44,125 nt of DNA from the IMG/VR virus record IMGVR_UViG_3300044513_001984, positions 1 to 44,125 of that record. One strand, written 5' to 3'. The notes beneath the pieces are model-generated. The model made no database searches. It was not told where the DNA came from and worked only from the letters and a program-made list of their open reading frames with translations. Below are positions 10,654-44,125 of this stretch, piece by piece (the stretch's first letter is position 1; every line of letters begins with the position of its first letter). Source of the stretch: a virus. Lineage: Duplodnaviria; Caudoviricetes. The position numbers and the translations under genes were made by a program.

Positions 10654-10897
10654 AAATTTAATTATACAAAAAGCAAAAGAAGGAACTACTGAAACAAAAG
10701 GTGGCTTACTTCTTGCTGAAACACATAAAAACGATATTAGATACCATAAAGCCACAATTATTTCTGCGGGTGATGAAGTAGCCGGAATTAAAAGTGGAGA
10801 TATTATTTATTACGATAAGCATGCTGGTCATCAAATAGAGTTTGAAAAAAATATATATCACGTAATTAAAGCATCAGATGTTGTTGTTGTTTTATGA
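10637..10897 (+). CDS. groES: co-chaperonin GroES (Cpn10)
   Basis: Mobile loop TETKGGLLL, IKSGDIIYY.K.AG, DVVVVL; overlaps the groEL 3' end. Confidence 0.9.
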   Translation: MKAIGKNLIIQKAKEGTTETKGGLLLAETHKNDIRYHKATIISAGDEVAGIKSGDIIYYDKHAGHQIEFEKNIYHVIKASDVVVVL

Positions 10898-11665: not shown

Positions 11666-11890
11666 ATGAAAAGAGAAACTTCACCTGCAGTAAAAAAAAT
11701 TGAAACTAATGGCATTACAGGGGCAAATGCCCTATGGGATGGGCCACTAGATGTTAGCGAATTTCCAATGGGCAAAGGCTCTAGTTCTGGTAAAAACGGA
11801 ATGGAAGTAAGCAAATACTATTGTGGTTGTGATTCATTAAAAGCACCTATTACTAATCGCGCAATGGGGCGTGGAAAAATGGTAAGATAA
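11666..11890 (+). CDS. hypothetical protein
   Basis: ORF in operon context; TAATG overlap with the next gene. Confidence 0.65.
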   Translation: MKRETSPAVKKIETNGITGANALWDGPLDVSEFPMGKGSSSGKNGMEVSKYYCGCDSLKAPITNRAMGRGKMVR

Positions 11891-12180
11891 TGGCTGACAA
11901 GAGTAAAATGGCTTGTAATAAGCCAATGAAATCTGATCGCCCTAAAAAGAAAAAAATGGTTAAAGCCTGCGAAGGTGGTAAAGAAAAAATTATTCATTTT
12001 GGGCACACTGATTATGGACATAATTACTCTGCTGCTGCGCGCAAATCTTTTAAAGCGCGCCATAAATGTAGTACAGCTAAAAGCAAATTAACCGCTCGTT
12101 ACTGGTCTTGTAAAAACTTATGGGCTGGTAAAGGCGGTAGTACTAAATCAAACCCAAAAGGTGTTCGCGGAAAATATTAA
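11890..12180 (+). CDS. small basic viral protein (DUF5754-like)
   Basis: KIIHFG..DY......RKSFKARH.C......ARYWSCK.LW motif; family assignment from memory. Confidence 0.6.
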   Translation: MADKSKMACNKPMKSDRPKKKKMVKACEGGKEKIIHFGHTDYGHNYSAAARKSFKARHKCSTAKSKLTARYWSCKNLWAGKGGSTKSNPKGVRGKY

Positions 12181-12182
12181 TC

Positions 12183-12503
12183 ATGGCTTTCAAAATCAAC
12201 CCACCATACAGTACAGATAACATGTACACTCAAATAAGATTTGCAGATCTTGGCAAAGGCATTATGGGTAGAACAGAAAGAGATGGGACTATTTTTATAA
12301 ATAAAAATTTAAGCGGAAAAGATATAGAAAAAGCTATTGCTCACGAAAAAATTCATAAAAAACAGTTTGAAAACGAAGAACTTGATTATGACAATGAAGC
12401 TCTTTACTGGCGTGGAAAGCGATACAAAAGAACAAATATAAACATGGGCAGTCGCAGATTACCTTGGGAAGGTCCAGCATATAAAGCTTCAGATAATGTC
12501 TAA
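12183..12503 (+). CDS. small zincin-like metallopeptidase
   Basis: G..IFIN...AIAHEKIH..Q and a downstream PWE..AY motif. Confidence 0.7.
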   Translation: MAFKINPPYSTDNMYTQIRFADLGKGIMGRTERDGTIFINKNLSGKDIEKAIAHEKIHKKQFENEELDYDNEALYWRGKRYKRTNINMGSRRLPWEGPAYKASDNV

Positions 12504-26112: not shown

Positions 26113-29100
26113 ATGGCTGAAATTAAAAATACTTTCATAAAATCCAAAATGAACAAAGATCTTGACGATCGAATTGTTCCGCCTGGAGAATATCGAGATG
26201 CTTTAAATATTGCTATAAGTAGATCAGAAGGAGATGACGTTGGCGCTTTAGAAACTATATTGGGAAACATAGTTGAACAAAATGGTGCTACTACTAATAA
26301 ATGTATAGGTGTATATATAGATAGAGTCGCTAAAAATATATATTATTTTGTTACTAATTATATTGATTCTTCTGCTAGCGGCTTAGACAATTATGCGCCG
26401 CCATCGGCTTATTGTGCTATAAAAGTATATAATGCAAATACTTTTACAAATACAACTTTAGTTTCTGGAAGCTTTTTAAACTTTTCTGCAAGAAGCCCTA
26501 TTATTGGTATAAATATTATTGAAGATTTATTATTTTGGACAGATAATAGAAATCAGCCAAGAAAAATAAACACAAATACAGCCCTTGCTTTTCCCGCCGG
26601 AAGTAATGCTTATTATACAAAAGAAGACCAAATATCGGTTGCAAAGTATTATCCGTGGAAGCCAATCAGCCTAATGAATATTAACAATGTAGCAGTTGGA
26701 GCAACTCCTACTCAATCTACAATGTCTAATCCTTCGGAACAAGCCTACCCAAATGGCAGCGCTAAGCCAGACTATGATGCGTCTTGGCCGGGAGACCCGG
26801 ATTATTTGTCGGATAAATTTATTAGATTAAGCTATCGCTTTCAATTTGATGATAATGAATATTCTTTAATTGCTCCTTTTACTCAGCCGTGTTTTATCCC
26901 CAAGCAATTTGGTTATTTTTTTGACACTGCGGAAGAAGACACATATAAAAGTACTATAGTTGATTTTTTTGAAAATAATGTAACTCAAATTATCGCTAAT
27001 ATAGAATTTGAAACATTAACGCCAAAAAAAGATTTTAAAATAAAAAAACTAGAAGTTCTTTATAAAGAATCTGATGGTCTTCAAATTAAAGTGATAGATA
27101 GCATTGATATTGAAGACGTAGAAGAAGCTATGGCAAATAATACAAACCCTTATGTGTTTGATTATAAATATATTTCAACAAAGCCGTATAAAAATTTAGC
27201 CGAAGATCAAACTGTTCGTGTTTTTGATAAAGTACCGGTTAAAGCTTTAGCTCAAGAAGTATCTGGTAATAGGGTTATATACGGTAATTTTTACACTGTA
27301 CAATCTCCCCCAAAATCTTTAGATTATAACGTAACTTATGCGGATAAAAATTTTCTTTTAGGAGTTAGCCAAAAAGAATATCCAAACCATACATTAAAAC
27401 AGAACAGAAACTACCAAGTCGGCTTTGTTCTTGCAGATAGATTTGGAAGACAAACCGGCGTTATACTTTCGTCAAATGATATTTCAGTCGATGATGGAAC
27501 TTATAATTATGGGGGATCCACCGTTTATGTTCCATATAAACCAAATTCTGGAACATCCATTTTAAATTGGCCGGGCTATGCACTAAGAACAATTATAAAT
27601 TCACCTATCCCTGACAGTGACCAATATAATGCGGTTGGTTATCCTGGTTTATACAAAGATCCAAATTACGGCGTTGATAGAATTGTTAAAAATACAGCCG
27701 GAACTGGATATAGCGTTGCAAACGGCGTTGCAACCTCAGGAGGGACTGGATCTGGATTAACTGTAGATATTTTAACTGTAAATGCTACTAAAGTAGGTAA
27801 TGTAAGTATAAGTAATCCCGGTTCTGGATATACTGATGGAGATGTTGTAACAATTGACGGCGGCACAACCCCTTGTGAACTTACTGTTACTGTTTTAAAA
27901 CCAAACCCAACAGGGTGGTATTCTTATAAAATTGTTGTAAAACAAAAAGAACAAGAATACTATAACGTTTATTTGCCTGGTATATTAAATGGCTATCCAT
28001 ATTCTTATAAAGATTCAACAGGCGCCAGCAATACAACTTTTGAGCGAGGAGAGACAGCAAATATAGTCTTATTTAATGATAATATAAATAAAATACCAAA
28101 AGACTTAGACCAGGTTGGCCCAGACACTATACAATATAGAAGCGGCACCAGACTTTTTGGGCGAGTGTCACCAATTAATAATAATAATGTTAACTATAAT
28201 CAACAATATTACCCTAGCATTATTGGAGATACTGTTACAGCTATTTCAACTTTATCTGAAGCGAACTACAACGATACAACAGCCTCTGGCGCAGACCCAG
28301 CTTCTTTTGATATAAATTATCCAGAATTTTATCAAAGTAATACAAATCCAAGTATTGCTAGAATAAAAACAACAAATCAAATAGGAAAAGACAATGTAGC
28401 GTCTGGTTATGAAAATGCTTTGGCTGTATATGAAACAGACCCCAGAGAGTCTTTATTAGATATATTTTGGGAAACAACATCTGCCGGGCTTATTAGTGAT
28501 TTAAACGCCGCTATTTTAGAGGGAGGATTTGAAGGGGCTGTAGCCACAAATGGATATACGTTTAGATTAAACGAAAATACCGCTCCTGGATCAAATGCTT
28601 TTAATGGTATTATAAATGTAGTAGACGCTTTTTCTAATGTAATAGAAAATAATATTGTATTCCAGCTAGTTAGCGTTTATGATGCAACAAACACAGAAAG
28701 AACAAATGAATTTTGGCTAGAAAATGGAGGTACTGGAACGCCAGCAGACCCTAAAGGCTTTAGAATAAAAACAAAGTCTATAGCAGGAGGACAAGACCGT
28801 GATTCTTATTTTTATTACGGAACAAATTCTGCAGCAAGAACGTTTAACATGCTCGTTAGATGTGTTTACACAAACACAGGAACAGGAGAAGTTTATATTT
28901 CTACAATTTCTTTATCTGATTTGTCTTTAGGTAATACACCACCAACTTTTATTACAGCTATCACTTGTCCTGCAACAATTATTTCATCTTTAACGCCAAT
29001 ATATACCGCAACTGTAAATGACACTATAGATTCAAACGGGGTTGTAGTATATACTTTTTATGCACAGAATGGGGCGCTTTGCGACGGCGGAAGATATACA

Positions 29101-29733
29101 GATGAAATAACATTTTCAGAAGTTAGCGGGGATTTATTGCCAAATATGTTTGAGCTTAGAACAAGTCCAGAAAATCCAGGTGTTTGCGAATTAGTACAAC
29201 TTCCTTATGAAGATATGGAATTACCCCAAGAAACATTTGACTGTTATGTTAGAGTTAGCGACGCTGGTGCTTCAAGAATTGCTTTTGCAAGAATTACTAT
29301 AAATAAACTTTTAAACTTATCAATTAACGCTATTACAGGCGGGCTTGGGGTTTGCAGCCCTGACGGCTCTTGGTATGCTGGGCAAGTTGCACAAGGAAAA
29401 TTAAGATACCGGGTTGATTTTGAAAATTTAAATCAAAATACAACGTATAATATAACAACAAAAAGTTTTCCTAATTCTCAAAGTGCTACCGGCACATTTA
29501 GTTTACCAGCGGGGTGTGCAATACCAAATTCGTTTACAACAGGAGCTTTAGAAACAGAAAAAACATATTATTTTGACGTTACTTGGACTAATGCTTGGGA
29601 TCCTGGGGCTCAAATTACACTTAACCTACGTATAGAAGATCCTGCGGAAGGAAACTCGGCGGAAATTAATCAAGTTATATTTAGACCTTTCCCAGCCCCG
29701 CAAACTAGCCCATGCCCAACTTGCACTCCCTAG
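26113..29733 (+). CDS. tail stabilization/muzzle protein, N-terminal part, with appended beta-sandwich domains
   Basis: MNKDLDDR..PGEYRDALNI, LLFWTDN..QPRKIN and YQVG.VL.DRFGR motifs. Confidence 0.78.
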   Translation: MAEIKNTFIKSKMNKDLDDRIVPPGEYRDALNIAISRSEGDDVGALETILGNIVEQNGATTNKCIGVYIDRVAKNIYYFVTNYIDSSASGLDNYAPPSAYCAIKVYNANTFTNTTLVSGSFLNFSARSPIIGINIIEDLLFWTDNRNQPRKINTNTALAFPAGSNAYYTKEDQISVAKYYPWKPISLMNINNVAVGATPTQSTMSNPSEQAYPNGSAKPDYDASWPGDPDYLSDKFIRLSYRFQFDDNEYSLIAPFTQPCFIPKQFGYFFDTAEEDTYKSTIVDFFENNVTQIIANIEFETLTPKKDFKIKKLEVLYKESDGLQIKVIDSIDIEDVEEAMANNTNPYVFDYKYISTKPYKNLAEDQTVRVFDKVPVKALAQEVSGNRVIYGNFYTVQSPPKSLDYNVTYADKNFLLGVSQKEYPNHTLKQNRNYQVGFVLADRFGRQTGVILSSNDISVDDGTYNYGGSTVYVPYKPNSGTSILNWPGYALRTIINSPIPDSDQYNAVGYPGLYKDPNYGVDRIVKNTAGTGYSVANGVATSGGTGSGLTVDILTVNATKVGNVSISNPGSGYTDGDVVTIDGGTTPCELTVTVLKPNPTGWYSYKIVVKQKEQEYYNVYLPGILNGYPYSYKDSTGASNTTFERGETANIVLFNDNINKIPKDLDQVGPDTIQYRSGTRLFGRVSPINNNNVNYNQQYYPSIIGDTVTAISTLSEANYNDTTASGADPASFDINYPEFYQSNTNPSIARIKTTNQIGKDNVASGYENALAVYETDPRESLLDIFWETTSAGLISDLNAAILEGGFEGAVATNGYTFRLNENTAPGSNAFNGIINVVDAFSNVIENNIVFQLVSVYDATNTERTNEFWLENGGTGTPADPKGFRIKTKSIAGGQDRDSYFYYGTNSAARTFNMLVRCVYTNTGTGEVYISTISLSDLSLGNTPPTFITAITCPATIISSLTPIYTATVNDTIDSNGVVVYTFYAQNGALCDGGRYTDEITFSEVSGDLLPNMFELRTSPENPGVCELVQLPYEDMELPQETFDCYVRVSDAGASRIAFARITINKLLNLSINAITGGLGVCSPDGSWYAGQVAQGKLRYRVDFENLNQNTTYNITTKSFPNSQSATGTFSLPAGCAIPNSFTTGALETEKTYYFDVTWTNAWDPGAQITLNLRIEDPAEGNSAEINQVIFRPFPAPQTSPCPTCTP

Positions 29734-29765
29734 TAATATTTAATAAAAATAAGTAATAATAAAAT

Positions 29766-31463
29766 ATGGCTACCACAATAGAAATATCTTACTTTAACTC
29801 ATATTGGATGAAGCAAGTAAATGATGCAAATTCAGTGCCGGTTTGGCCGTTTGGGTGGCCTTATAACACCGGCAGTGATGCTTTGCCGGCCTCCGGCGGC
29901 GGAACACTTGCGGCTTTTCCTAATACCGCTGTAAATACGGTTACAAATCCTGTCCAAGTTGCTGGTAGAGATTTAAACTGGTTTGTCGAAGAATCTAGAA
30001 TACGTGGTGGATACAATAATGTTGAAACAGATTTGGGCGTTAAAGCTTATATTGTTGAGGAAGAAACAACTCAGCAAAATAGATTTAATTCTTTAATCTA
30101 TTCTGGAGTGTATAATTCTAGAACAGGAATTAATGATACAAATCAATTTTCAGTAGCTCAAGATATTACTAAAAGCTTAGATCCCGCTAATGGTTCTATA
30201 CAAAAGCTTTTTGCTGAAAATACAAATTTAACTATATTCCAAGAAAATAAAGTTAGCTCTGCTTTAATTGATAAAGATGCGTTGTATACCGCAGAAGGCA
30301 CACCAGTGCAAGCAACATCAAATGTTGTAATAGGACAAGTTCAAGCATATTTAGGCGAATACGGCATAAGTAAAAATCCAGAGTCATTTGCTGTATATGG
30401 CTTTCAAAAATATTTTACAGACCAAGATCGCGGGGTTGTTTTGCGTTTGTCTAGAGATGGTATTACAGAAATTTCTCAATATGGAATGATAGATTATTTT
30501 AGAGATAATTTACCAAAAGTTAAAGAAAATAATACTTGGATTATTGAAGCGGGATCAAGCAGCGTGAGTAATCCATCTAATGATTTAGAAATTTTTGTGT
30601 ATAACGTAAATGTTGATACTTTATTACTGGGCATGCAGGTATTTCAAGACGGTAATTTTATTGGTTATATAATTGACAGAAGCAATGTAGGGATAGGCTA
30701 TCAAGTAATAACTTTAGATAGACCTGCTTCTGTTATAGCTGGTGATGTTGTAACTATAAGTTCTGTTGCGCCTGGAAAACTATTAGGTGGCTATGATATA
30801 CATAATAAAAATTATGTGTTATCTTTACAAGAAACACCACAATATCAAAGCGACAATAGCAATTATAGCACTCTTGCTTTTGATGAATTAATAAATGGAT
30901 GGGTTAGCTTTTATTCTTATAAGCCAGCTCAAATGTTTAGTGTAAAAAATGATTTTTATACTATAAAAAATGAAACCATTTGGAAACATTATTCTGAAAG
31001 CGCTAATGTTGCCACTTTTTATAACATAAGCGGCGGGGCAAATATTACTTTTGTTTTTAACCAAAACCCATCTAACAACAAAGTATTTAAAACTGTTAAT
31101 TACGAAGGCGACAATGGATGGCAAGTAGATTCGTTTATTTCAGAGCCGACCGGATATGATTTTACAACTAATGGCTGGGAAAAATTCAATGACTCTATCC
31201 AAAATATTCAAAGCTATGTTGATGGGGCTTATATTGAAAATGGAATAAAATACTATTCTGGATTTAACAGAAAAGAAAATAAATATTATGCTAACCTTAT
31301 TAATAATTCACCTGTACAACCAGGTGAAGTTGTATTTGGCAGCAGCATGTCAGGAATCAAAGGAAGATTTGCAACAGTAAAGTTTTCAATAGACAATTCT
31401 ACAGATGTAGGAAATCAAAAAGAACTTTGGTCAGTTGGCACTGAAGTTACTTATTTAAAATAA
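29766..31463 (+). CDS. tail stabilization/muzzle protein, C-terminal part
   Basis: GSIQKL...IFQENKVS, YGISKNPESF, YFTD..RG.VLRLSRDG, GWVSFYSYKP, KVFKTVNYEG. Confidence 0.78.
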   Translation: MATTIEISYFNSYWMKQVNDANSVPVWPFGWPYNTGSDALPASGGGTLAAFPNTAVNTVTNPVQVAGRDLNWFVEESRIRGGYNNVETDLGVKAYIVEEETTQQNRFNSLIYSGVYNSRTGINDTNQFSVAQDITKSLDPANGSIQKLFAENTNLTIFQENKVSSALIDKDALYTAEGTPVQATSNVVIGQVQAYLGEYGISKNPESFAVYGFQKYFTDQDRGVVLRLSRDGITEISQYGMIDYFRDNLPKVKENNTWIIEAGSSSVSNPSNDLEIFVYNVNVDTLLLGMQVFQDGNFIGYIIDRSNVGIGYQVITLDRPASVIAGDVVTISSVAPGKLLGGYDIHNKNYVLSLQETPQYQSDNSNYSTLAFDELINGWVSFYSYKPAQMFSVKNDFYTIKNETIWKHYSESANVATFYNISGGANITFVFNQNPSNNKVFKTVNYEGDNGWQVDSFISEPTGYDFTTNGWEKFNDSIQNIQSYVDGAYIENGIKYYSGFNRKENKYYANLINNSPVQPGEVVFGSSMSGIKGRFATVKFSIDNSTDVGNQKELWSVGTEVTYLK

Positions 31464-31468
31464 ATTAA

Positions 31469-31879
31469 ATGGAATTAAATATTAGACGATTAAAAGAATC
31501 AGATTGGAAAACACTAGTTCAATGGTGGGATGAGTGGCCTGAATGGGTAAACCCGCCAAAAGACTTTTTGCCAGACAATGGGATTGGTGGCCTTATGGTA
31601 GAAAAAAATAATTTGCCAATTGTTGCTGGTTTTATATATTTTACAAATTCTAAAGGCGCTTTGCTTGAATGGATTGTTTCTAATCCAAAATATAAAGAAC
31701 GCGACAGAAAAGAAGCAATAGAATTATTAATAATGGGGGCTGAAGAAGTTTGCAAGGCTCAAGGTTTTAAATACATGTTTACCATCGGAAGAAATAAACA
31801 TCTTATAGAAACACATAAAAAATTAAATTGGGTTGTAGATAAAGATCCATCATACGAAATAACTAAAAAAATTAATTAA
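31469..31879 (+). CDS. GNAT-family acetyltransferase-like protein
   Basis: LNIRRLKESD start and GNAT-like layout; position before internal virion genes, analogous to T7 gp13. Confidence 0.65.
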   Translation: MELNIRRLKESDWKTLVQWWDEWPEWVNPPKDFLPDNGIGGLMVEKNNLPIVAGFIYFTNSKGALLEWIVSNPKYKERDRKEAIELLIMGAEEVCKAQGFKYMFTIGRNKHLIETHKKLNWVVDKDPSYEITKKIN

Positions 31880-31880
31880 T

Positions 31881-32627
31881 ATGGCAGTAGTAGCAGCAGT
31901 AGCGGTAGGTGTTGGCGTTGCGGCAAATGTCGCCGGCGGTGCAATAGCATCTTCTCAGGCTAAAAAAGCAAGCAAAGCAGCCGGAAGAAGGGCTGATGCG
32001 GCAGCCCGCGAAGTTGAAGCTTTAAAAGCCAGTCGCCAAGAAATTATAGACCCATATGCCGGTGTTGAAAATTTAAGCGGGTTAGCGCAAGACTTAAGCG
32101 GCCAAATGAGCAATCCTTTTGCATCTTTAGGTGTTGCAACAAAATCCGCAGAAATTCAAATGGAGCAAACAGATATTGCTTTAGCAAATACCTTGGATAC
32201 ACTTAGGTCAACCGGGGCGAGTGCCGGGGGCGCAACTGCTCTTGCTCAAGCTGCCCTAGCTAGTAAAAAAGGCGTTGCAGCTAATATTGAACAGCAAGAA
32301 GCTCAAAATGAAAAGCTTAGAGCTCAGGGAGAACAACAGCTACAACAACAAAAAATATCTGAACAACAAAGACTTCAAAGTATTGCTATTTCAGAAGGGC
32401 AAAGACTTCAACAGGCTCAAGTTGCTGGGCAACAATTTATGTTCCAAGCGCAAGAAGATAGAACAAATGCTGATCTTAATAGAGCGGCTGGTATTCAACA
32501 ACAACAGCAACAGCTTCAGGCTCAGTCTGATGCTAATGCTGCCGCGGCTTGGGCGGGGGCTATGTCCGGCATTGGCAGCATAGCAGGATCAGTGGCTGGA
32601 GCAGCAATTGGCGCGCCGGGAAAGTAG
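31881..32627 (+). CDS. putative ejection/pilot (internal virion) protein; candidate -1 frameshift extension to 32719
   Basis: Hydrophobic Ala/Gly termini and a Gln-rich coiled coil; ends at G GGA AAG TAG. Confidence 0.75.
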   Translation: MAVVAAVAVGVGVAANVAGGAIASSQAKKASKAAGRRADAAAREVEALKASRQEIIDPYAGVENLSGLAQDLSGQMSNPFASLGVATKSAEIQMEQTDIALANTLDTLRSTGASAGGATALAQAALASKKGVAANIEQQEAQNEKLRAQGEQQLQQQKISEQQRLQSIAISEGQRLQQAQVAGQQFMFQAQEDRTNADLNRAAGIQQQQQQLQAQSDANAAAAWAGAMSGIGSIAGSVAGAAIGAPGK

Positions 32628-32649
32628 GAGGGCCGGAAATAGGCCCGCC
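32618..32649 (+). promoter_or_regulatory. candidate -1 programmed ribosomal frameshift signal
   Basis: Slippery heptamer GGGAAAG at 32618-32624 in the correct phase, 5-nt spacer, hairpin GGGCC-ggaaata-GGCCC at 32630-32646. Confidence 0.6.
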
Positions 32650-32737
32650 ACAAAACAATAATTTTGAATTTATAGATACCAATGCAACCACATTTACAGG
32701 CGGTTTTGGTGAAACTTAAAATAATAAAATATAAAAA

Positions 32738-34441
32738 ATGGGAGCATACGAAAATCCAGCAATGATACAAGGCCCCGATATTGGTAAAATTTGGGGACAG
32801 GCATTTGCTAGCCTTGGCCAATCTATAGGGCAAGGTGTTGCAAGTGGGCTGCAGCAATATTATTCTAAATTAGAAGAAGCAAAAAAAGAACAAAAAGCAG
32901 AAAATGCTAGGGTTCAGCAAATTGGTTATGAAATTGAAGAGCGTGCTTATGACCAAGCTAATGAAAATTATAATGCTTTAAAAAGACAAAACCCTGGGCT
33001 TGCTGAGCAATTTCAACCAATGGTTGCTAATCTTCTTAATGGTACAGGTGTTGCAGGTGAAGAAGGATATAAAATGGGCGCAATTGAAGCACAAACACTT
33101 TTAGCAACAAAAAGTAATTTAAGCAAAGAAGAAAAAGAATATTACAGAAATATTGTACAACGCGCAAAGCTTTTTCAAGATAGAGTTATTTCTGGAGGCG
33201 CAGATATAATTTCTGATCTTTCCGATATGGAAAAAATTAAACCACAGGATATTGGTAATACTCATTATTATGTTGGTAATAATGCAAAAGAAAAGTTAAC
33301 TTCCCAATATTCCGCGTATGTTTTAAATAATAAAGAAATTCCCGGCGCAACAACTTCTAAAAATTTAGGGATAGACAACGATGGAAATCCAATTGTTTCC
33401 GTAAGCACCGTGTTTGACGCAAGCTCTACTGCGGGTAAAGCACTGTTAAAAAAATTTCCTGAATTAGAATCAGAAATAAAAAACGGGCAAATATCTTTTA
33501 AATGGGAAAAAGATATAACTCAGCTTGGAGATGGATTTATTCGCGAAATTCCAGCAGGTATTGACGCAACACAAGTTTATCAAGATTCTGGGGCAATGGA
33601 CGACCAAGGCAAACTTACACAAAATATGCTTATTGGAAATCCCATTATGCGTCGGGAAGCTAGTGGCGCAAAAGGAATTGATAATTTAATTGAAACACAA
33701 TATTTAAATGTACCCGGCTTAATGCAAAGCAAAACATTTAATGCCGCTGCTAAAGCAAAAGCAACTGCAATTATATCTTATGATCCTGGAGATTTAAAAG
33801 CATATATGCAAAACACCCTTGAGCTTGGCCCAAAATATGACTATTCAAGTTTTATGAAAAAATCGGCTGAAGAAAAAATTAGTATTTTACAAGAACTTGA
33901 AAAACAAAAATTAATTAAAACAAAGTTTTCCGGTTATAAATCTAGACCAGCCACGGCAGAAGACGTTAAATATATAAATGCTAATGCTAAAGATCTTCAA
34001 TCAGGTGAATCACTGGCCCCTATTCAAGAAGGACAAATGATATATTATCAAGAAGAAGCTAAAGGTATTTCAGAATATCAACGAAGTGGTGGCGGTGGCT
34101 CTACGGGCGACAAAGCAACTACTATTTCTAAAGACCGATGGGAGGGAATGAAAGAGTCTGGCTATAGCAAAGGAAGTTATAAATATAAATGGAATAATGC
34201 ACTAGGTGGATTTGAGCAATATTTTCTTTCGTCAATAGACGGAATTCAAAACGAAGAAAAAGTTAGTGGTGTTTTAGCCAGATCTCCGCAAGAACTTGGT
34301 AATATATCAGGTGGTCAAAACTGGGGTAATCCTCGGGGATTTGAAATACAAGAGCCCGAATTAATAACACAGAATATAATTGGGCCAATAAATCAATCTT
34401 CAGGAACAGTAAACCTAGACGAAGAACTTAATACACAATAA
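32738..34441 (+). CDS. putative internal virion/ejection protein
   Basis: MGAYENP start then an amphipathic helix and coiled coil; lies between pilot-like and giant virion genes. Confidence 0.7.
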   Translation: MGAYENPAMIQGPDIGKIWGQAFASLGQSIGQGVASGLQQYYSKLEEAKKEQKAENARVQQIGYEIEERAYDQANENYNALKRQNPGLAEQFQPMVANLLNGTGVAGEEGYKMGAIEAQTLLATKSNLSKEEKEYYRNIVQRAKLFQDRVISGGADIISDLSDMEKIKPQDIGNTHYYVGNNAKEKLTSQYSAYVLNNKEIPGATTSKNLGIDNDGNPIVSVSTVFDASSTAGKALLKKFPELESEIKNGQISFKWEKDITQLGDGFIREIPAGIDATQVYQDSGAMDDQGKLTQNMLIGNPIMRREASGAKGIDNLIETQYLNVPGLMQSKTFNAAAKAKATAIISYDPGDLKAYMQNTLELGPKYDYSSFMKKSAEEKISILQELEKQKLIKTKFSGYKSRPATAEDVKYINANAKDLQSGESLAPIQEGQMIYYQEEAKGISEYQRSGGGGSTGDKATTISKDRWEGMKESGYSKGSYKYKWNNALGGFEQYFLSSIDGIQNEEKVSGVLARSPQELGNISGGQNWGNPRGFEIQEPELITQNIIGPINQSSGTVNLDEELNTQ

Positions 34442-34447
34442 AAAATT

Positions 34448-37400
34448 ATGCCTAAATATAAATTAGTTAGCGGTAATATTGTTGATGAACAACAATTAGT
34501 GGATTTTGCAGCATCTAAAAATTTAACATTAGAAGAATTACTTAGCAAAAATCCTGGCATTGAAATTGTTCAAGACGAATCTTTTCAAATCGACCCTATA
34601 GCGGAGGTTGCGGCTGTGGGGTCAACAACAAAACCTCAAGCAGCCGTTATGGATTCTGTATCGGAAAATATTTCTTCGGAATCACCAAAAGCCGATAAAG
34701 GTTTTTTTGAAAATACCTGGGATTCTTTAGTTGCTTCAACTTATGATTGGATAGGCAGCAAGGTGGATCAGTTTAGTATAGTTAGAGAAAACAAAGCTAT
34801 GCTAGCTGCTAACATTAGTGATCTTATTTTTGGAACTAATGCCGCCGACCAGCTTAATAATATGTCTTATGAAGAAAGAAACAAAGTTATTAATGCAGTT
34901 TCAGATATTTCAGACCGGGCCGGAATACTGAGTATAGGAGGCAGCGGTACAGAAAAAGTATATGAAAATTTTAAAGAAAAAGCCACAAATTTAAGAAAAA
35001 CTTTAAACACATACGACCAAAGTATTACAGAAGATTTTCTTAGCGGTAATTTTGCGAGAGGAACAGCTAGAGCGACAACTGAAGCAATTAGTTCTATTCC
35101 GTCTATAGCTGAATCTATGGCTCCTTTGGGCATTCTTTCTATTGCCTTAGGAGCAGCGTCTGAAGCATCGAAAGAAGCCCAAAAAGAAGGAGAAGATTTA
35201 GACTTAACTACACTAGCTTACTCAACAACTGTAGGGGCTTCTGAAGGGCTACTTGAATTAGTTACCAGAAGAATTGGTGGCAAAATGTTTAAAGATTTAT
35301 TAGACAAGCCAAAAGCTGTTATAAATAAAACAGTTAAAGAAACTTTTTTAGATATGGCTAAAGACTTTGGCGCAGAAGGATTAAGTGAATCAGGAACGTT
35401 ACTAGTTAATAAAGCTGCTGAAAGTATTATTTTAGGAAGAGAAGATGTTTTTAATGACTCTTTTACAGAATTTGTTGATACATTTATTGTTGGTGGTTTT
35501 GCCGGTGGAGGTATGACTGCCACTGGTAGTGGTTCCCAAATATTACGTCAAACTGTTCAAGGAAAGCAAATTAAAAAGCAATTAGCACAGACACCTTACG
35601 AAAATTTATCTGATGCATATAAATTGCCAGATGTGCCCCCTGGGCTTGTAGCTCTTACTGAAAATTCTGCTACAGAAAAATTTCTTGAAACAGACTTAAA
35701 GCAAAAGGTAAATTCAGGCGAAATGACAACTGATGAAGCCGATGCTATACGCATAAACTTTCGCAATACACAAGGTACCATAAACCGCTTAAAAGCAATT
35801 GGATTTGCTGAGTCAGACTATAGCAAGGCAATTGAATTAGCTAAAGAAAAAAAAGAATTACAAGATAAAATTAAAGAAGTCGGCGACCCTGTTTTAACTG
35901 AAAAAGAAAAAGCTAGAATTGAAGAAATTGATAATGAGCTTAGACAAATTCTTTCAGGCAAAAAGCTTGAAGCTAATTTAGCAGGGACAACAGCTACTGC
36001 TGAAAAATTAGGCTTTACAGAATCCCTTCAAATTTTATCTGATGAAGAATTTTTAGAAGAGCGCGCTAAAAGACTTTCAAAAGATAAAGATATTGATATT
36101 CAAGAAGCCAGAAAACAAATACAAGAAGAAGCAAAAGAAGCTGTAGAAAAAGGAGAAGGCACTGCCACAGGGTTTTTTACTAGTGATGGAGAAATATTAA
36201 TAAATAAAGACGCCGCGCTTGAAGTTGGAGATATTGGTGTTGGATCGCACGAACTTTTACACCCTATATTAAATGCTATAGTGGGTGACGCAACACAGCA
36301 AGGAAAACTTGTTGCTGATTTTGAAGCTTTATTAGCAAAAAATAATCCTAAAATGAAAGCCAAAATGGATGAGCTATTAAAAGCTTATGAAGTTGATGGT
36401 GTTTTAGACCCTAATATAAAAGCAACAGAATATTTAACTGTATTCTCAAGTGCTATTCAAAATGGCGATATAAAATACAGTGAAAGTGTTTTTGCTAAAA
36501 TTGGTGACTATATTTTAAATATTTTAAGAAGCCTTGGTTTTGAAAATGCAAATTTTAATTCTGCAAAAGGTGTTTATAATTTCTTAAAAGAATACAATAA
36601 TACAATATCAAGCGCAGAAGGACTTAGCGATAGAGCAATTAAACTTATTAAAGACGCTGAAACTGCAAGAGGCGTTAAGGTTTCTGAGGCTGGTGCTGTT
36701 AAAACTGATCAGGCTTCAAAAAAATTGGCTCCTGAAGTTTCTACGCAAGTTGCAGAGCAAATTACTGAAATTAAAAATCTTCAAAAAGAAGGAGAAGCTT
36801 TAGCAAAAAGATTTAATAAAGAATTTATTAAGTCTCCAAAACAAATAAGAATTGAACAACAGCTTTCAGAAAATATTGCTCCCGCTTTAGATGCTTTAGC
36901 AGAATCTACAACCAAAAGATTATATGATCCAATTGCACCAGATGCAAAAAGAAGTGTATCAAGACAAGATTATAAAGATGCATTAAAAGCTAATTGGACA
37001 TCAATGGTTATTAATGAGTTCGACCCAGCTAAACAAGATGTTGAAACATTTTTATCTACCCGTGGTAATTTACGCGCTAATAGCTTAGCTAAAGAACTTG
37101 GTATTGAAGGGATTACAGAAGGCGGTATTAAAGCAGATGTTACAGAGCAAAAAGCTTTAACAACGGAAGATGCAACAGAAGTTGGGATTGATGAAGGAAT
37201 AGAAATTACCCGTCGAGAAGCCAAGCTTATTAATCCAGTTAATCTTATACCAGATGAAAATCTTCGGGAAAAATACAGAAATACTGTAAAAGAAAAAGTT
37301 AAAAATTTAAATACAAAAGGCTTGTCATTTAAAACTTTAAAAGACCAAGCTCCAGAAGTGACAGCCGAATTATTTGGTATACCTGTTAAAAAAGTAACAG

Positions 37401-40400
37401 ATGCGGCTGCTAATTTATCTACAGGAGACTTAAGCGCAATTCAAAATTTTATTAATAAAAATGCAGATACTCTTTTAAAGCTTTTGCCAGAAGGGGGCAT
37501 CGATCAAAATCAAGCGGCTTCTGAAAGTCTTTTAGGTACTTCAACTGGTGTTCCTAAAAAATTACTTGATGCATTTTATGATCCAAAACCAAGAGGAACA
37601 AAAGGCGCTGGATTAGCAATACAAAATAAAAGAAAAGGAATAACACGAAAAGAGTTTTTAGAAACTTTTGGTATTGTTGATGGCAAAAAACTAGAAGGAT
37701 TATCGCCGCGAGGCCCTCAAGCGCAAGCAATGAAAGGAATGATTTCTTTGTTTGGCCGCATGATGACTAATACTGTGGTAAGACAAGAATTATCACAACA
37801 ATCAGGAACTGAAGCGGCAATTCAAGATATAGCGGCTGGTAAATCGGATCAACAATTTAGTAGAAGAAATAAAAAGATATTAGACGATTTTGGAATAGGC
37901 GGGCTATATTATAAATTAGACAGTGAAGAAAATTTGGATAGGTATGTAAAAGATTTTGAAACTAATCTTCTTCCTGTTTTTGGTCCAAACTTTTTTAAGC
38001 CATCTCAAGTTGTACCGCTTGGCTCTATACCTTATAATTTAGGTAATCTTAAAGAAAGAAAAAAAATACAAGAAAATTACGAGAAAAAAATACGTGAAGC
38101 AATACAAAACTACACCGGGGCAGCAGTTAATTGGAAAATAGAAGGGAATACAAACTCTCCATTTGAAAGGTTATCGTTTTATAAGCCTTCTAAAGCTTAT
38201 GGAATAACACCTAAACAAATTGCAAAAAATTTTAAAAACGGTAGAATTGCAAAATACAATGAAAAGTACAATTCTATTTTTACCGAAATGTGGGTAAAAA
38301 CAGCTGAAGCTGTAAGAGAAAATCCTGCTATTGCCCCGGCTTTAATGATATATTATCAAGCTGCAGCTAATAATGCCGCACATCCCCATAGATTAGGAGC
38401 AGAAATGATAGGTTATTCTTCTGATCCAAAAGGTATAAAAGATATTAGCGCAAAAGGAAATAAATTTGATAGAAATTATATTTATGAACATGCAGTCCAG
38501 TCCGTTGTTGCATATGAAACACTAATGAGAGCGGCCATGGATAAAAATGTAAATTTTGAATCCGTTTTATTTGACGTTAAACAAAATTATAAATTAATCG
38601 CATTAGACGCCGCTTTAAATAAAAAACTTGATGAAGCTGGCTTTGCAAGTAAAATGCCTGCAAACTGGAAAAGTTGGCTAGACCGTTATTTTAACGAAAA
38701 AGTTGCAGACATAGATGGGGGTATTAACCCGGAAACAATTTTAGATGCAGACGGAATAACTTTTGCTGAAAAATATAATGTTACTAATAAAGGTCCACTT
38801 TCCAAAGATCAGTTTAGCAAAAAGCAAAAAAAATTAAGCAAAGAATTTAATAATATTCTTGAAAATAAAACTGGCATCCCTTCAAATAAAGAAATTGATG
38901 CAGCTAAAGCTGAAGTTGTAGGTGCCAACAAAGGCCGATTTAATTGGTTTATTCCACCAACAGCAGAAGATTTTGTAGGGTTATTATATCAGTTTTTAGG
39001 CAAAGGAGCAGTTGGAGATAAGCAAATGGCTTGGTTTAAAGTTAATTTGCTTAACCCTTATGCTAAAGCAATGAGTGCAATTTCAAGAGACCGTACAAGT
39101 TTAGCTAGAAATTACAGAGCGCTTAAAAAAGAATTAAAAATTGTACCTAAAAATCTTAAAAAAGAAATACCTGGAGAAGGCTATACTGTTGAACAAGGAG
39201 TGCGTGTTTACATATGGACAAAGCAAGGCTACGATATTCCTGGAATTAACAAAAAAGACGCTAAGGCTTTGCGCGATTATGTTAATGCAAATCCTGAACT
39301 TAAAGAATTTGCAGACAAACTAATTGTATTAAATAAAAACGAATATGCAAAGCCAAAAGACGGCTGGACCGCAGGTACATTAACGACAGACATGTTAACT
39401 TCTTTAAACGAAGGCGGCCGTGAAAAACATTTAGCAGAATGGCAGGCGAATGTTGATGTAATTTTTAGTGAACAAAACTTAAATAAAATAGAGGCTGCCT
39501 ACGGCAAAACTTTTCGTAATGCTTTGGAAAATTCTTTAACAAGAATGAAAACAGGGCGCAATAGAACTTATGGTACAGACAATTTAACTGGTAGGTTTAC
39601 GGATTGGTTAACAAATTCGGTCGGGGCTATTATGTTCTTTAATACACGCTCGGCTATACTACAAACAATTTCTGCTTCTAACTTTATAAACTTTAGCGAC
39701 AATAATCCAATAAAAGCAGCCGGGGCTTTTGCTAATCAAAAACAATATTGGAGTGATTTTATAAAATTATGGAATTCAGACTTTTTAGTTGATCGTCGCG
39801 ATGGTTTGCGTTTAAATGTAAATGAGAGTGATATTGCGGACATGGCTAAAAAAGGCGGAGTTCGTGGTGTTATATCTGAACTATTAAAATTAGGTTTTAC
39901 ACCGACACAACTTGCAGATAGTTTTGCAATTGCCGCAGGTGGATCAACTTTTTATAGAAATAGGGTAAAAACTTATTTAAAACAAGGGTTAGATCAAAAT
40001 GCCGCAGAAAAAAAAGCTTTTCAAGATTTTAGAGAAACAGCCGAAGAGTCTCAGCAATCAAGTCGCCCAGATAAAATTAGTCAAGAACAAGCGGGGCCAT
40101 TAGGTCGTATTATATTAGCTTTTGCAAATACACCGGCGCAATATGCCAGATTAATGAAAAAAGCTTTTCTTGATCTTAAAAACGGGCGTGGAGACGCTAA
40201 AACAAATATATCAAAGCTTATATATTATGGTGCAGTGCAAAATTTAGTATTTACTGCAATGCAACAAGCATTATTTGGCATCATGTTTGGAGATGAAGAA
40301 GAAGATGAAGAAAACCAAAAGATATTAAATATAATGAGCGATGAAGAGTTTGAAAAATATAAAAAAACTGTGTCTCCTGAAAATATCCGTGCTGTAATAA

Positions 40401-41053
40401 AACAAAGAAAAATTGATGTTGATAAAAAGAAAGCATTAGAAAAAAAATTAGCAAAAGAACAAAATAAAGCTACTAATGTAGCTAATGGCATGGCGGATAG
40501 TATTTTACGTGGTATGGGTATATATGGTGCTATTATTTCTGTATTAAAAAATACTACAAAAAAAATAATTGAAAGATCAGAATATAAAAATCCTAATTAT
40601 TCTACAGAAGCAATTTTTGAATTGTTAAAAATATCTCCGCCTATATCTTCAAAAGCAACTAAAATTAGAAATGCTTTACGTTCTTACGAATGGGATAAAG
40701 ATAAAATGTATGAAAAAGGTTTGGCTTTAGAAAATCCAGCTTATTTAGCAGCCGGTAATATTATATCAGCAGCAACTAATATTCCGCTGGATAGGGTTGT
40801 TAAAAAAGTAACTAATATTAAAAATTCTTTAAATGAAGAACTAGAAACTTGGCAAAGAATTGCATTGTTAGGAGGATGGGCTGATTGGGAAATTGGTGCT
40901 AAAACAGAAAAAACTGCGGCTGAAATTAAACTGGAAGAAGAACAAAAAGAATTAGAGCTATTAAAAAATATGACCTCACAAGAAAAGGCTAATTACCTTT
41001 TAGAAAAGAAAAGAAAAGCAAGATTAGAACGAGAAAAAAACAAAAATAAATAA
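34448..41053 (+). CDS. giant multi-domain ejection protein with zincin (HELLH) domain
   Basis: 2201 aa; G.F...GEILIN...SHELLH...E; Gly/Ala-rich membrane-like segments; helical C-terminal domain. Confidence 0.8.
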   Translation: MPKYKLVSGNIVDEQQLVDFAASKNLTLEELLSKNPGIEIVQDESFQIDPIAEVAAVGSTTKPQAAVMDSVSENISSESPKADKGFFENTWDSLVASTYDWIGSKVDQFSIVRENKAMLAANISDLIFGTNAADQLNNMSYEERNKVINAVSDISDRAGILSIGGSGTEKVYENFKEKATNLRKTLNTYDQSITEDFLSGNFARGTARATTEAISSIPSIAESMAPLGILSIALGAASEASKEAQKEGEDLDLTTLAYSTTVGASEGLLELVTRRIGGKMFKDLLDKPKAVINKTVKETFLDMAKDFGAEGLSESGTLLVNKAAESIILGREDVFNDSFTEFVDTFIVGGFAGGGMTATGSGSQILRQTVQGKQIKKQLAQTPYENLSDAYKLPDVPPGLVALTENSATEKFLETDLKQKVNSGEMTTDEADAIRINFRNTQGTINRLKAIGFAESDYSKAIELAKEKKELQDKIKEVGDPVLTEKEKARIEEIDNELRQILSGKKLEANLAGTTATAEKLGFTESLQILSDEEFLEERAKRLSKDKDIDIQEARKQIQEEAKEAVEKGEGTATGFFTSDGEILINKDAALEVGDIGVGSHELLHPILNAIVGDATQQGKLVADFEALLAKNNPKMKAKMDELLKAYEVDGVLDPNIKATEYLTVFSSAIQNGDIKYSESVFAKIGDYILNILRSLGFENANFNSAKGVYNFLKEYNNTISSAEGLSDRAIKLIKDAETARGVKVSEAGAVKTDQASKKLAPEVSTQVAEQITEIKNLQKEGEALAKRFNKEFIKSPKQIRIEQQLSENIAPALDALAESTTKRLYDPIAPDAKRSVSRQDYKDALKANWTSMVINEFDPAKQDVETFLSTRGNLRANSLAKELGIEGITEGGIKADVTEQKALTTEDATEVGIDEGIEITRREAKLINPVNLIPDENLREKYRNTVKEKVKNLNTKGLSFKTLKDQAPEVTAELFGIPVKKVTDAAANLSTGDLSAIQNFINKNADTLLKLLPEGGIDQNQAASESLLGTSTGVPKKLLDAFYDPKPRGTKGAGLAIQNKRKGITRKEFLETFGIVDGKKLEGLSPRGPQAQAMKGMISLFGRMMTNTVVRQELSQQSGTEAAIQDIAAGKSDQQFSRRNKKILDDFGIGGLYYKLDSEENLDRYVKDFETNLLPVFGPNFFKPSQVVPLGSIPYNLGNLKERKKIQENYEKKIREAIQNYTGAAVNWKIEGNTNSPFERLSFYKPSKAYGITPKQIAKNFKNGRIAKYNEKYNSIFTEMWVKTAEAVRENPAIAPALMIYYQAAANNAAHPHRLGAEMIGYSSDPKGIKDISAKGNKFDRNYIYEHAVQSVVAYETLMRAAMDKNVNFESVLFDVKQNYKLIALDAALNKKLDEAGFASKMPANWKSWLDRYFNEKVADIDGGINPETILDADGITFAEKYNVTNKGPLSKDQFSKKQKKLSKEFNNILENKTGIPSNKEIDAAKAEVVGANKGRFNWFIPPTAEDFVGLLYQFLGKGAVGDKQMAWFKVNLLNPYAKAMSAISRDRTSLARNYRALKKELKIVPKNLKKEIPGEGYTVEQGVRVYIWTKQGYDIPGINKKDAKALRDYVNANPELKEFADKLIVLNKNEYAKPKDGWTAGTLTTDMLTSLNEGGREKHLAEWQANVDVIFSEQNLNKIEAAYGKTFRNALENSLTRMKTGRNRTYGTDNLTGRFTDWLTNSVGAIMFFNTRSAILQTISASNFINFSDNNPIKAAGAFANQKQYWSDFIKLWNSDFLVDRRDGLRLNVNESDIADMAKKGGVRGVISELLKLGFTPTQLADSFAIAAGGSTFYRNRVKTYLKQGLDQNAAEKKAFQDFRETAEESQQSSRPDKISQEQAGPLGRIILAFANTPAQYARLMKKAFLDLKNGRGDAKTNISKLIYYGAVQNLVFTAMQQALFGIMFGDEEEDEENQKILNIMSDEEFEKYKKTVSPENIRAVIKQRKIDVDKKKALEKKLAKEQNKATNVANGMADSILRGMGIYGAIISVLKNTTKKIIERSEYKNPNYSTEAIFELLKISPPISSKATKIRNALRSYEWDKDKMYEKGLALENPAYLAAGNIISAATNIPLDRVVKKVTNIKNSLNEELETWQRIALLGGWADWEIGAKTEKTAAEIKLEEEQKELELLKNMTSQEKANYLLEKKRKARLEREKNKNK

Positions 41054-42802: not shown

Positions 42803-44125
42803 TTATCCGTCGCAAGACAAACAATCAGGATCCATGGCAGCGGCTGCAATATCTCCGCGTAGCACAGATTCTGTACGCACATAATACAATGTCTTAATAC
42901 CTTTTTTCCAAGCTTCCATATGAACTTGATTAATCCACTTTGGTGTAGCAGTGCTTGGAAAGGCTAAATTTAAACTGACAGACTGGTCTATATACTGCTG
43001 TCGTATTCCCGCTTGGTTAACCAATTCAAGCTGGTTAATCTCTTTAAACGTTTTGAAAACTTCCTTAGCAGGAATATCGTGCGCCATTTGTATATTATCC
43101 AGTTCGTCAATATCCTGAACCGAACCTCCGTCAGCCAAGATCTTATCCCAGATTTCATCAGTATTTAATTTGTGCTTCTTTAAAAGTTTAACAAGTGTTG
43201 GGTTTTTTCTTATGAAAGTTCCTTTAGCGCTTTGTTCAGTAAATACATTAGCCGCCCAAGGCTCAATGCCAGGGGAAACATTACCAGATAATTTACTGTT
43301 ACTAACAGTTGGTGCGATTGCGCGGAGATGTGTGTTGCGTAAGCCAGTGCCAGCACACCACAAAGGTTCACCATAAGTTTCAGCCAAAGCGCGCGATGCT
43401 CTTTCAGACTCAATTTTAATTTGAGAAAATATCTTCCGAGTTTCATACTGAGCAAGTAAACCTTCAAAAGGAAGACCCTTTTCTTGGAGATAGGTGTGCC
43501 ATCCAAGTACACCCAGCCCCAGCGCGCGCCCTCTCTGAGCAGAACGAACGGAGTTTTCAAAACCGCGCAGTCCTTTGGCTCTTTGAATAAATTCCTCCAT
43601 AACCCCATCAAGAAACCATATGGCGTCGTATATAAGGTTAGTGTCTTTCCATTCTTCATATTTAGCTAGATTAATTGATGATAAACAACAAACAAAGCTA
43701 TGGTTTTCATCTGTGTGTAATGTAATTTCACTACAGATATTAGTCATATGAACTTTTAATCCGTTTGTTTTATATGCTTGTGGATTTGCTTTATTAGTGT
43801 TTCCTTTAAATAATATGTACGGTTCTCCAGTTGCTTTTCGCTTTCTAAGTAGTTTACTCCATCTAGCTCTAGCATTCGCATCTCCTTGTTCAAGGCGTCG
43901 CATAAATTTATCACCCACAACTGCGCACTGATGTAGATTAAGCGACTGTCTGTTGACATCCCCTTTAGGCTCTCGTATTTCCAACCATTCTTCGAAATCG
44001 TCGTGCTCAATATTGATGTTAACCGAAGCAGCTCCTCGTCTGACTGATCCTTGATTAGTCGCAAGTATTGTGCTATCATAGATTTTACAAAATGGTACAA
44101 CTCCGTCTGATGTTCCATTACCAGT
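42803..44125 (-). CDS. nrdA: class I ribonucleotide reductase alpha subunit, 5'-truncated by the window edge
   Basis: TNICSEI, CCLSS, IAPTVSNS, KTLYY and C-terminal CLSCDG; the frame stays open to 44125 (TGNGTSDGVVPFCK...QGSVRRGA). Confidence 0.95.
   Translation of the reverse strand, partial: TGNGTSDGVVPFCKIYDSTILATNQGSVRRGAASVNINIEHDDFEEWLEIREPKGDVNRQSLNLHQCAVVGDKFMRRLEQGDANARARWSKLLRKRKATGEPYILFKGNTNKANPQAYKTNGLKVHMTNICSEITLHTDENHSFVCCLSSINLAKYEEWKDTNLIYDAIWFLDGVMEEFIQRAKGLRGFENSVRSAQRGRALGLGVLGWHTYLQEKGLPFEGLLAQYETRKIFSQIKIESERASRALAETYGEPLWCAGTGLRNTHLRAIAPTVSNSKLSGNVSPGIEPWAANVFTEQSAKGTFIRKNPTLVKLLKKHKLNTDEIWDKILADGGSVQDIDELDNIQMAHDIPAKEVFKTFKEINQLELVNQAGIRQQYIDQSVSLNLAFPSTATPKWINQVHMEAWKKGIKTLYYVRTESVLRGDIAAAAMDPDCLSCDG

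Follow-up and report, generated by a model that had tools for sequence, protein, structure and literature searches.

The gene at positions 31,881 to 32,627 of the window (the whole stretch of 44,125 nt that was analysed) ended in a slippery heptamer, which was followed directly by a TAG stop codon and then by a predicted hairpin. Judging from its sequence, this arrangement probably forms a programmed −1 frameshift signal, from which a majority product of 248 aa and a minority product of 279 aa with a 31-residue tail would be made. The site has this anatomy, and the anatomy recurs at the ends of orthologous genes. The gene product is likely an ejection protein of the T7 gp14/P22 gp7 type, as suggested by synteny and weak homology. 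Extensions of the T7 10A/10B kind have been described for capsid and tail proteins, while the gene class would be new. Phage frameshifts described so far are found mainly in genes for tail chaperones, capsids and tail tubes; if this reading is true, the ejection apparatus would be added to them.

The phage and its gene neighbourhood

The virus record was linear, with a length of 44 kb and a completeness estimate of 69%. Its terminase showed 31-44% identity to those of cultured Flavobacteriia phages, Pachyviridae and Pervagoviridae among them, and 64% identity to that of an uncultured spring phage. The capsid protein was 42-48% identical to those of cultured Flavobacteriia phages. In the region 9097-10897, GroEL was encoded, with a GroES-sized gene after it. 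GroEL is described as common to many 'group 2' putative Flavobacteriaceae phages (PMC5332604). Because of the terminase and capsid identities and GroEL, a Bacteroidota host was inferred, and the phage is likely a Bacteroidota-infecting podophage related to Pachyviridae/Pervagoviridae. No tRNA genes were found.

The features around the site were as follows.

29766..31463, + strand: short-tail muzzle protein (Pfam crAss_MUZ_C, E 2e-8, above the cut-off; crAss_MUZ, E 9e-6, below the cut-off)
31469..31879, + strand: 136-aa GNAT-like gene, directly 5' of the 248-aa gene (0.99 to GNAT-named viral clusters)
31881..32627, + strand: 248-aa gene, predicted small ejection protein of the T7 gp14/P22 gp7 type, 0-frame product (ESM Atlas, BFVD, profile, AF2 model)
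32618..32624, + strand: slippery heptamer G_GGA_AAG, in X_XXY_YYZ phase with the 0 frame (sequence; motif class at the gene ends of 29/214 loci)
32624..32719, + strand: −1 frame, 31-codon low-complexity extension ending in TAA, which would give the 279-aa long form (sequence; related copy in run X13)
32625..32627, + strand: 0-frame stop TAG directly after the heptamer (sequence)
32630..32646, + strand: predicted 3' stimulatory hairpin with a 5-bp GC stem and a 7-nt loop, extendable to 32627-32649 (folding)
32720..32737, + strand: A-rich 18-nt spacer before the next start (same length class as the stop-to-start spacers of orthologs, median 13 nt)
32738..34441, + strand: 567-aa gene at the gp15/gp20-like position of the predicted ejection triad (size and order alone)
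34448..41053, + strand: 2201-aa gene at the gp16-like position of the predicted ejection triad (size and order alone)

The order of muzzle gene, GNAT-like gene and the triad of 248-, 567- and 2201-aa genes was the same in cultured relatives. In MW202828, the slot equivalent to the GNAT-like gene was annotated as acetyltransferase. We take this gene to sit at the position of T7 gp13/P22 gp14. The 567-aa and 2201-aa genes gave no family match in Pfam or PHROG.

Upstream, at 26113-31463, cultured relatives have a single ORF for a tail gene that was present here as two (1206 and 565 aa). The two ORFs matched different parts of phrog_14478, and a similar split region was seen in MW202828. At the other end of the window, a gene on the − strand (42803-44125) ran off the end of the record with its frame open to the edge; it may encode the large subunit of ribonucleotide reductase.

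Assignment of the 248-aa protein

The earlier note had called the product a podovirus ejection protein, and this label received moderate support. Look-alikes in the ESM Atlas were T7_gp14 clusters (0.94) and P22_gp7 clusters (0.90), and the best fold match in BFVD was an 'Internal virion protein' (E 1.5e-3). A profile of 133 sequences matched five proteins encoded at the syntenic position in four cultured phages and in MW202828, with 96.4% probability and an E value of 1.3e-9. For one of the five, phi18:3 gp120, the annotation as a virion protein comes from MS/MS. The AF2 model was all-helical (pLDDT 78, pTM 0.49), and two hydrophobic segments were located at residues 1-27 and 220-247.

Against the label, the Pfam evidence was weak and no PDB match was obtained, either by sequence or by fold. 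The T7_gp14 family of Pfam was hit by 4/82 family members, all below the cut-off (best E 0.008). The 248-aa protein itself had no match in PHROG or Pfam, PF24072 and PF25688 included, and no tblastn match among GenBank phages; the search with PF24072/PF25688 gave elemo gp20 with an E value of 0.004. With single sequences, hhalign gave no significant match for elemo gp20 and a weak one for Panino CDS0072; both were linked to the protein only through the broader profile. In Gundel, the syntenic gene was not located within the genome region examined.

The gene resembles those of T7 gp14 and P22 gp7 as reviewed in PMC8954989. It opens a triad of small, medium and large genes, of which it is the smallest, and the product has about 200-250 aa, is predicted to be helical and has hydrophobic segments. 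Two such segments were found here, as predicted in P-SSP7, whereas four or five are predicted in T7-like gp14 (PMC8954989). The tail region corresponds to a part of T7 gp14, residues 130-196, that is described as not resolved in virions (PMC11784390).

The slippery site, the stop and the hairpin

The end of the ORF, CCG GGA AAG TAG, was borne out by the sequence, and its coordinates held. GGGAAAG occurred only once on the + strand of the window, at this site. Most genes were said to end in TAA, and the stops of the 38 + strand genes examined agreed with this (31 TAA, 4 TGA and 3 TAG). The stem of the hairpin started 5 nt downstream of the heptamer, with the first pair 6 nt after it. The fold of 32625-32660 had an energy of −14.5 kcal/mol and a z-score of −3.3, and 2/200 shuffles were as good; in the wider window 32590-32680 (91 nt), the z-score was only −1.3. 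The GC-rich hairpin was thus placed correctly in the earlier note, but the DNA around it was AT-rich only downstream, since the upstream 100 nt had 53-70% GC. No Rfam match was found.

The −1 frame was open for 31 codons up to the TAA at 32717-32719, which lay 18 nt before the ATG at 32738 within a gap of 110 nt, as had been claimed. Since trypsin cleaves behind the Lys of the site, the 31-residue extension would form a single tryptic peptide. After the TAG, the 0 frame was open for 4 codons and the +1 frame for 11. Stop readthrough would add those 4 codons only, which argues against it. A second, weaker predicted stem-loop was located within the −1 ORF at 32677-32711, in a region that folded variably in other motif loci.

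The site in contigs from sequencing runs

A 1-nt indel in the assembly would make the same picture. Read evidence was taken from Logan contigs of 8 runs. Contigs of four of the 8 runs (X1, X6, X7 and X11) spanned the site with 0 differences and 0 gaps, at depths of 46.8, 3.8, 12.7 and 2.5, respectively; X1 may be the source run, and X7 may belong to the same campaign. Runs X4, X5 and X12 gave no contig piece over the heptamer. Judged by the spanning contigs, the arrangement of heptamer and TAG is not an assembly indel.

A contig of run X13 carried a related copy of 32615-32740 with six differences. Four of the six were placed, one synonymous and three conservative in the −1 frame, and none of these four was in the heptamer or the stem. 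Upstream of the site, this contig had a different core allele, which by eye read like the ends of P0006 and P0008.

We consider it very improbable that the site is an artefact or a product of decay, that is, a 1-nt error in assembly, or a deletion that recently truncated the gene, with a dead tail behind it and a hairpin that is a terminator or a chance fold. One pair of loci, L064 and L066, does look like this. These near-identical loci have an A run of 9-10 nt, in which a difference of one base leaves one in frame and the other truncated, and there is no hairpin; the difference may be an assembly error, slippage or phase variation. The read evidence also consisted of contigs, two of them at low depth. 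However, four spanning contigs were free of gaps, the same anatomy was found at 29 loci, and there was no terminator-like call at the hairpin.

Recurrence among orthologous loci

The ortholog set was built from the best matches of each of five scans and therefore leans towards closer relatives. The family comprises at least 7,927 protein clusters. A first set of 190 entries, including the window, gave 142 usable loci after 41 duplicates, 6 run-offs and 1 entry with an internal stop were dropped. A second, later set of 105 loci gave 72 new ones (30 duplicates and 3 run-offs dropped). The first rule was fixed as any X_XXY_YYZ within 2 codons of the stop, and a gap of at least 60 nt was counted as long. 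Under this rule, loci of the first set with a heptamer had 21 long gaps, 2 short and 1 unknown, against 4, 110 and 4 for loci without one. In the second set, the numbers were 6, 3 and 1 with a heptamer and 4, 57 and 1 without.

The recurrence that would be expected of a functional signal was found: heptamer, hairpin and −1 ORF recurred at gene ends, and the motif was present in 29/214 distinct loci, window included. The motif here was narrowed to G_GGA_AAN or A_AAA_AAG, at a distance of at most two codons from the stop. With this motif and a 55-nt cut-off, both picked after the data were seen, and with the gap of L041 set by hand from the alignment, the pooled sets showed a long gap in 27/27 measurable motif loci and the motif in 0/171 short-gap loci. 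The loci are related, so a Fisher p for the association of motif and gap is not a true probability. The anatomy spanned proteins down to 33% identity. TAG was the stop in 20/29 motif loci and in 21/185 of the others. Nine of the 29 sites were G_GGA_AAC, G_GGA_AAT or G_GGA_AAA.

The gap was filled by the −1 frame. In 26 of the 27 measurable motif loci, this frame ended no more than 35 nt from the following ATG; the 0 frame did so in 4 and the +1 frame in 2. It is extremely improbable that the −1 ORF is an independent small gene that overlaps the 248-aa gene and has a start codon to itself. In the window, a TTG was present in the −1 frame 25 codons upstream of the site, as such a gene would need. 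However, 23/29 motif loci had no upstream ATG, GTG or TTG in this frame, and the other six differed in codon and position.

The same spacing bears on translational coupling. According to this explanation, the frameshift is real, but shifted ribosomes terminate beside the gp15-like start and thereby control how much of that gene is expressed, while the tail is incidental. The distance from the −1 stop to the next ATG was −8 to 45 nt, in most loci 9-21, compared with 59-126 nt for the 0-frame stop, and the extensions of different lineages shared little sequence, as coupling would allow. However, orthologs without the motif ordinarily have a spacer of this length (median 13 nt), as is expected if the −1 ORF is the end of the gene. 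The next gene also has its own A-rich leader, and several extensions kept their peptide sequence between loci and also where it is encoded in frame. Coupling as the purpose of the shift therefore appears quite unlikely.

The motif was absent in 185/214 loci, with very close relatives among them, which the earlier note had not foreseen. None of the three best protein matches (95%, 92% and 87% identical) ended in Gly-Lys, and there was no slippery site at the stop in 5/5 syntenic genes, from four cultured phages and MW202828. Since many close relatives are without the signal, two forms are not essential family-wide. On the tree, the motif label required 24 changes for 28 of 210 rows, against a shuffled mean of 26.7, which is a near-random spread. 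By inference, both exchange of 3' ends and repeated loss contributed to this scatter.

Nine long-gap loci had no motif. Three of these had G_GGG_RAR variants, namely G_GGG_AAG in L093, G_GGG_GAA in L123 and G_GGG_GAG in L278, with the −1 frame open for 26-38 codons; the extensions of L123 and L278 matched that of L178, which has G_GGA_AAG. Three were of a candidate +1 type. L021, L166 and L208 ended in GCC TTT GGG TAA, with gaps of 73-123 nt and the +1 frame open for 39, 40 and 21 codons, respectively. This ending is a candidate +1 shifty-stop site, at which such tails are likely reached through a +1 shift. The remaining loci were L066, with its A-run indel, and two that were unexplained (L219 and L275).

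An inverted arrangement, in which an internal slippery site within an in-frame tail would give the short form, was also considered and rejected. An in-phase G_GGA_AAT in the tail region was seen in L020 and L060 only and may be due to chance.

In an exact scan of viral contigs with the 14-base site of the window, 1/119 matches fell in the family, and this was L024, which was already in the set. The scan is uninformative on motif frequency because several other matches read by eye like gpG/gpGT chaperones. In five of the matching loci from unrelated phages (L313, L349, L387, L388 and L407), both frames looked by eye like such chaperones.

Possible selection on the signal

A G before GGA was found in only 86/1041 gene-body GGA codons and in 4/53 cases of GGA-AAN. 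At the sites, this G was supplied by the rare codons CCG, GCG, TCG and TTG (2-11% usage), a sign of synonymous constraint. A simple hairpin of −4 kcal/mol or lower that started +5 to +8 after the heptamer was present in 17/20 non-redundant loci and in 21/29 loci of the full set. Other windows averaged 5%, and control positions gave 3.9% of 5,500. The start of the hairpin peaked sharply at +6 (+5 to +7 across loci), while its sequence varied between loci. The other 8/29 motif loci were without a simple hairpin, and several of these folded as bulged stems.

The offset of the hairpin was set by the heptamer and was the same with the stop 0 or 1 codon away. Such behaviour is more in line with a stimulator of frameshifting than with an element for readthrough or termination. 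One exact 4-bp register was shared by 9/26 loci with five different sequences, and 0/2000 permutations of the arms reached this; the figure is for the best out of many registers, in related loci. Substitutions in the extensions of 8 pairs gave no clear third-position bias.

The tail across the family

The extensions had 15-36 residues and were rich in G, T, S and N. Seven of the 29 matched tails that other orthologs encode in frame. In the case of the window, the extension had no significant match to in-frame tails (score 39, shuffle maximum 49). L161 corresponded to L002 with a 16-nt insertion, which brought the tail into frame and left heptamer, stop and hairpin as an out-of-phase relic. Nearly the same peptide was encoded by the +1 extension of L208 and the −1 extension of L223, and the +1 peptide of L021 resembled the in-frame tail of L007 by eye. 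Fewer than 5 residues past profile position 240 were present in 49/182 orthologs. We regard the tail as a hypervariable C-terminal appendage of the family, which in other orthologs is in frame, replaced by an S74-like domain, or absent.

A second relic is possible in L237, next to the motif locus L235, where an in-frame tail contained an out-of-phase GGGAAAG with a hairpin after it. An in-frame C-terminal domain of about 75 aa that resembled the Peptidase_S74 intramolecular chaperone was seen in L160, L013, L035, L068, L097 and L120 and in P0011, P0017 and P0110. The S74 match of P0110 was below the cut-off (E 0.004), and there was none for P0011 or P0017.

The exchange of tails raises the explanation that they recombine into the gene in any frame and that slippage restores the long form, with the short form as a by-product. 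A rescue idea of this kind is cited for Ig-like extensions (PMC5009743). It would account for the same peptide being reached by −1 in L223 and +1 in L208 with similar tails in frame, and for the scattered motif label on the tree. However, the same anatomy was found in proteins as little as 33% identical. In addition, the unit of run X13 from the heptamer onward was joined to a different core allele, which means that the signal travels with the tail, and the 49 nearly tail-less orthologs make the short form a normal state. Rescue is thus distinctly unlikely, and a programmed output of two forms is the reading that we prefer.

Proposed mechanism

By the established rules of −1 frameshifting, GGA would be in the P site and AAG in the A site while the hairpin 5 nt downstream paused the ribosome. 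tRNA-Gly and tRNA-Lys would then re-pair on GGG and AAA. Ribosomes that did not slip would meet the TAG at once and give the tail-less 248-aa protein. The slip rate may be a few percent to a quarter, which is a guess. G_GGA_AAG and A_AAA_AAG are described as among the most efficient motifs in E. coli, G_GGA_AAC is called low-efficiency there, and stimulators start 5-8 nt downstream (PMC4066793); these efficiencies and rules are for E. coli, and the predicted host here is a member of Bacteroidota.

The last hydrophobic segment (residues 220-247) ends just before the site, and both forms would therefore keep the predicted channel-forming core. The frameshift would make an optional and fast-changing tail sub-stoichiometric, as in T7 10B for the capsid. 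Both forms would be packaged, and the tail would be on a few of the roughly 8-20 copies per virion, a figure taken from T7. It might tune packaging or contact with the host envelope without being essential. A role of the tail in evasion of defence is possible. In P22, escape from SieA is reported to map to gp16 and gp20, not gp7 (PMC10883804).

A more far-reaching version can be formulated, which we regard as unlikely. Heptamer, stop, hairpin and tail would be an exchangeable recoding cassette, through which each ejection ring receives about one subunit with a tail. This subunit would break the symmetry and show a hypervariable, host-matched peptide at entry. Mixed output would be selected strongly enough that L021, L166 and L208 regained it by a +1 shift at GCC UUU GGG UAA.

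Comparison with known systems

Virion proteins extended by frameshift are described for T7/T3 gp10A/10B, the capsid and tail of Lactobacillus A2, Listeria PSA/A118/A500 and SPP1 gp17.1* (PMC5009743, PMC9022992). As in this group, a minority of structural subunits would gain a C-terminal extension through a shift near the stop, and relatives reach the extensions by −1, by +1 or in frame. These proteins form the outer capsid or the tail tube, and what they gain is in most cases an Ig-like or FN3 domain; T7 10B is not Ig-like. In contrast, a predicted internal ejection protein would gain a low-complexity peptide of 15-36 residues here.

The slippery site of the lambda tail-assembly chaperone gpG/gpGT is G_GGA_AAG. 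The site of HCTV-5 is also G_GGA_AAG, and the gpG/gpGT ratio in lambda is given as 30:1 (PMC5009743). Unlike lambda, the window has the site outside a chaperone gene and without a tape-measure context, near a short-tail muzzle gene and within a predicted ejection triad. gpG and gpGT are absent from virions, whereas distant homologs of the 248-aa protein are annotated as virion proteins (phi18:3 gp120, MS/MS).

In the literature searched, which included few subscription journals and no supplementary annotation tables, a frameshift was described neither for a gp14/gp7-type gene nor for these phages, and no study of phage −1 signals in Bacteroidota was found. The available text of the review of ejection proteins (PMC8954989) had 0 mentions of frameshifting. 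The nearest precedent is a predicted −1 frameshift of genes 39/40 in the marine podovirus Alteromonas phage vB_AspP-H4/4, which involves an internal virion protein (PMC5658483). That shift joins an endolysin gene to the downstream internal virion protein and is a one-line annotation in one genome (PMC5658483), whereas a short C-terminal tail recurs across the family here.

If the reading is correct, long forms in a large family of uncultured aquatic phages escape standard gene calling. The C-terminus of gp14-type proteins becomes testable, as natural short-only, long-only and mixed alleles coexist. The 29 sites also provide a natural series of minimal hairpin stimulators in phages of a predicted Bacteroidota host.

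Another in-phase heptamer was noticed elsewhere in the window. C_CCA_AAA at 12153-12159 lay six codons before the stop of the gene at 11890-12180, and the −1 frame there was open for 114 codons, into the gene at 12183-12503, which has its own ATG.
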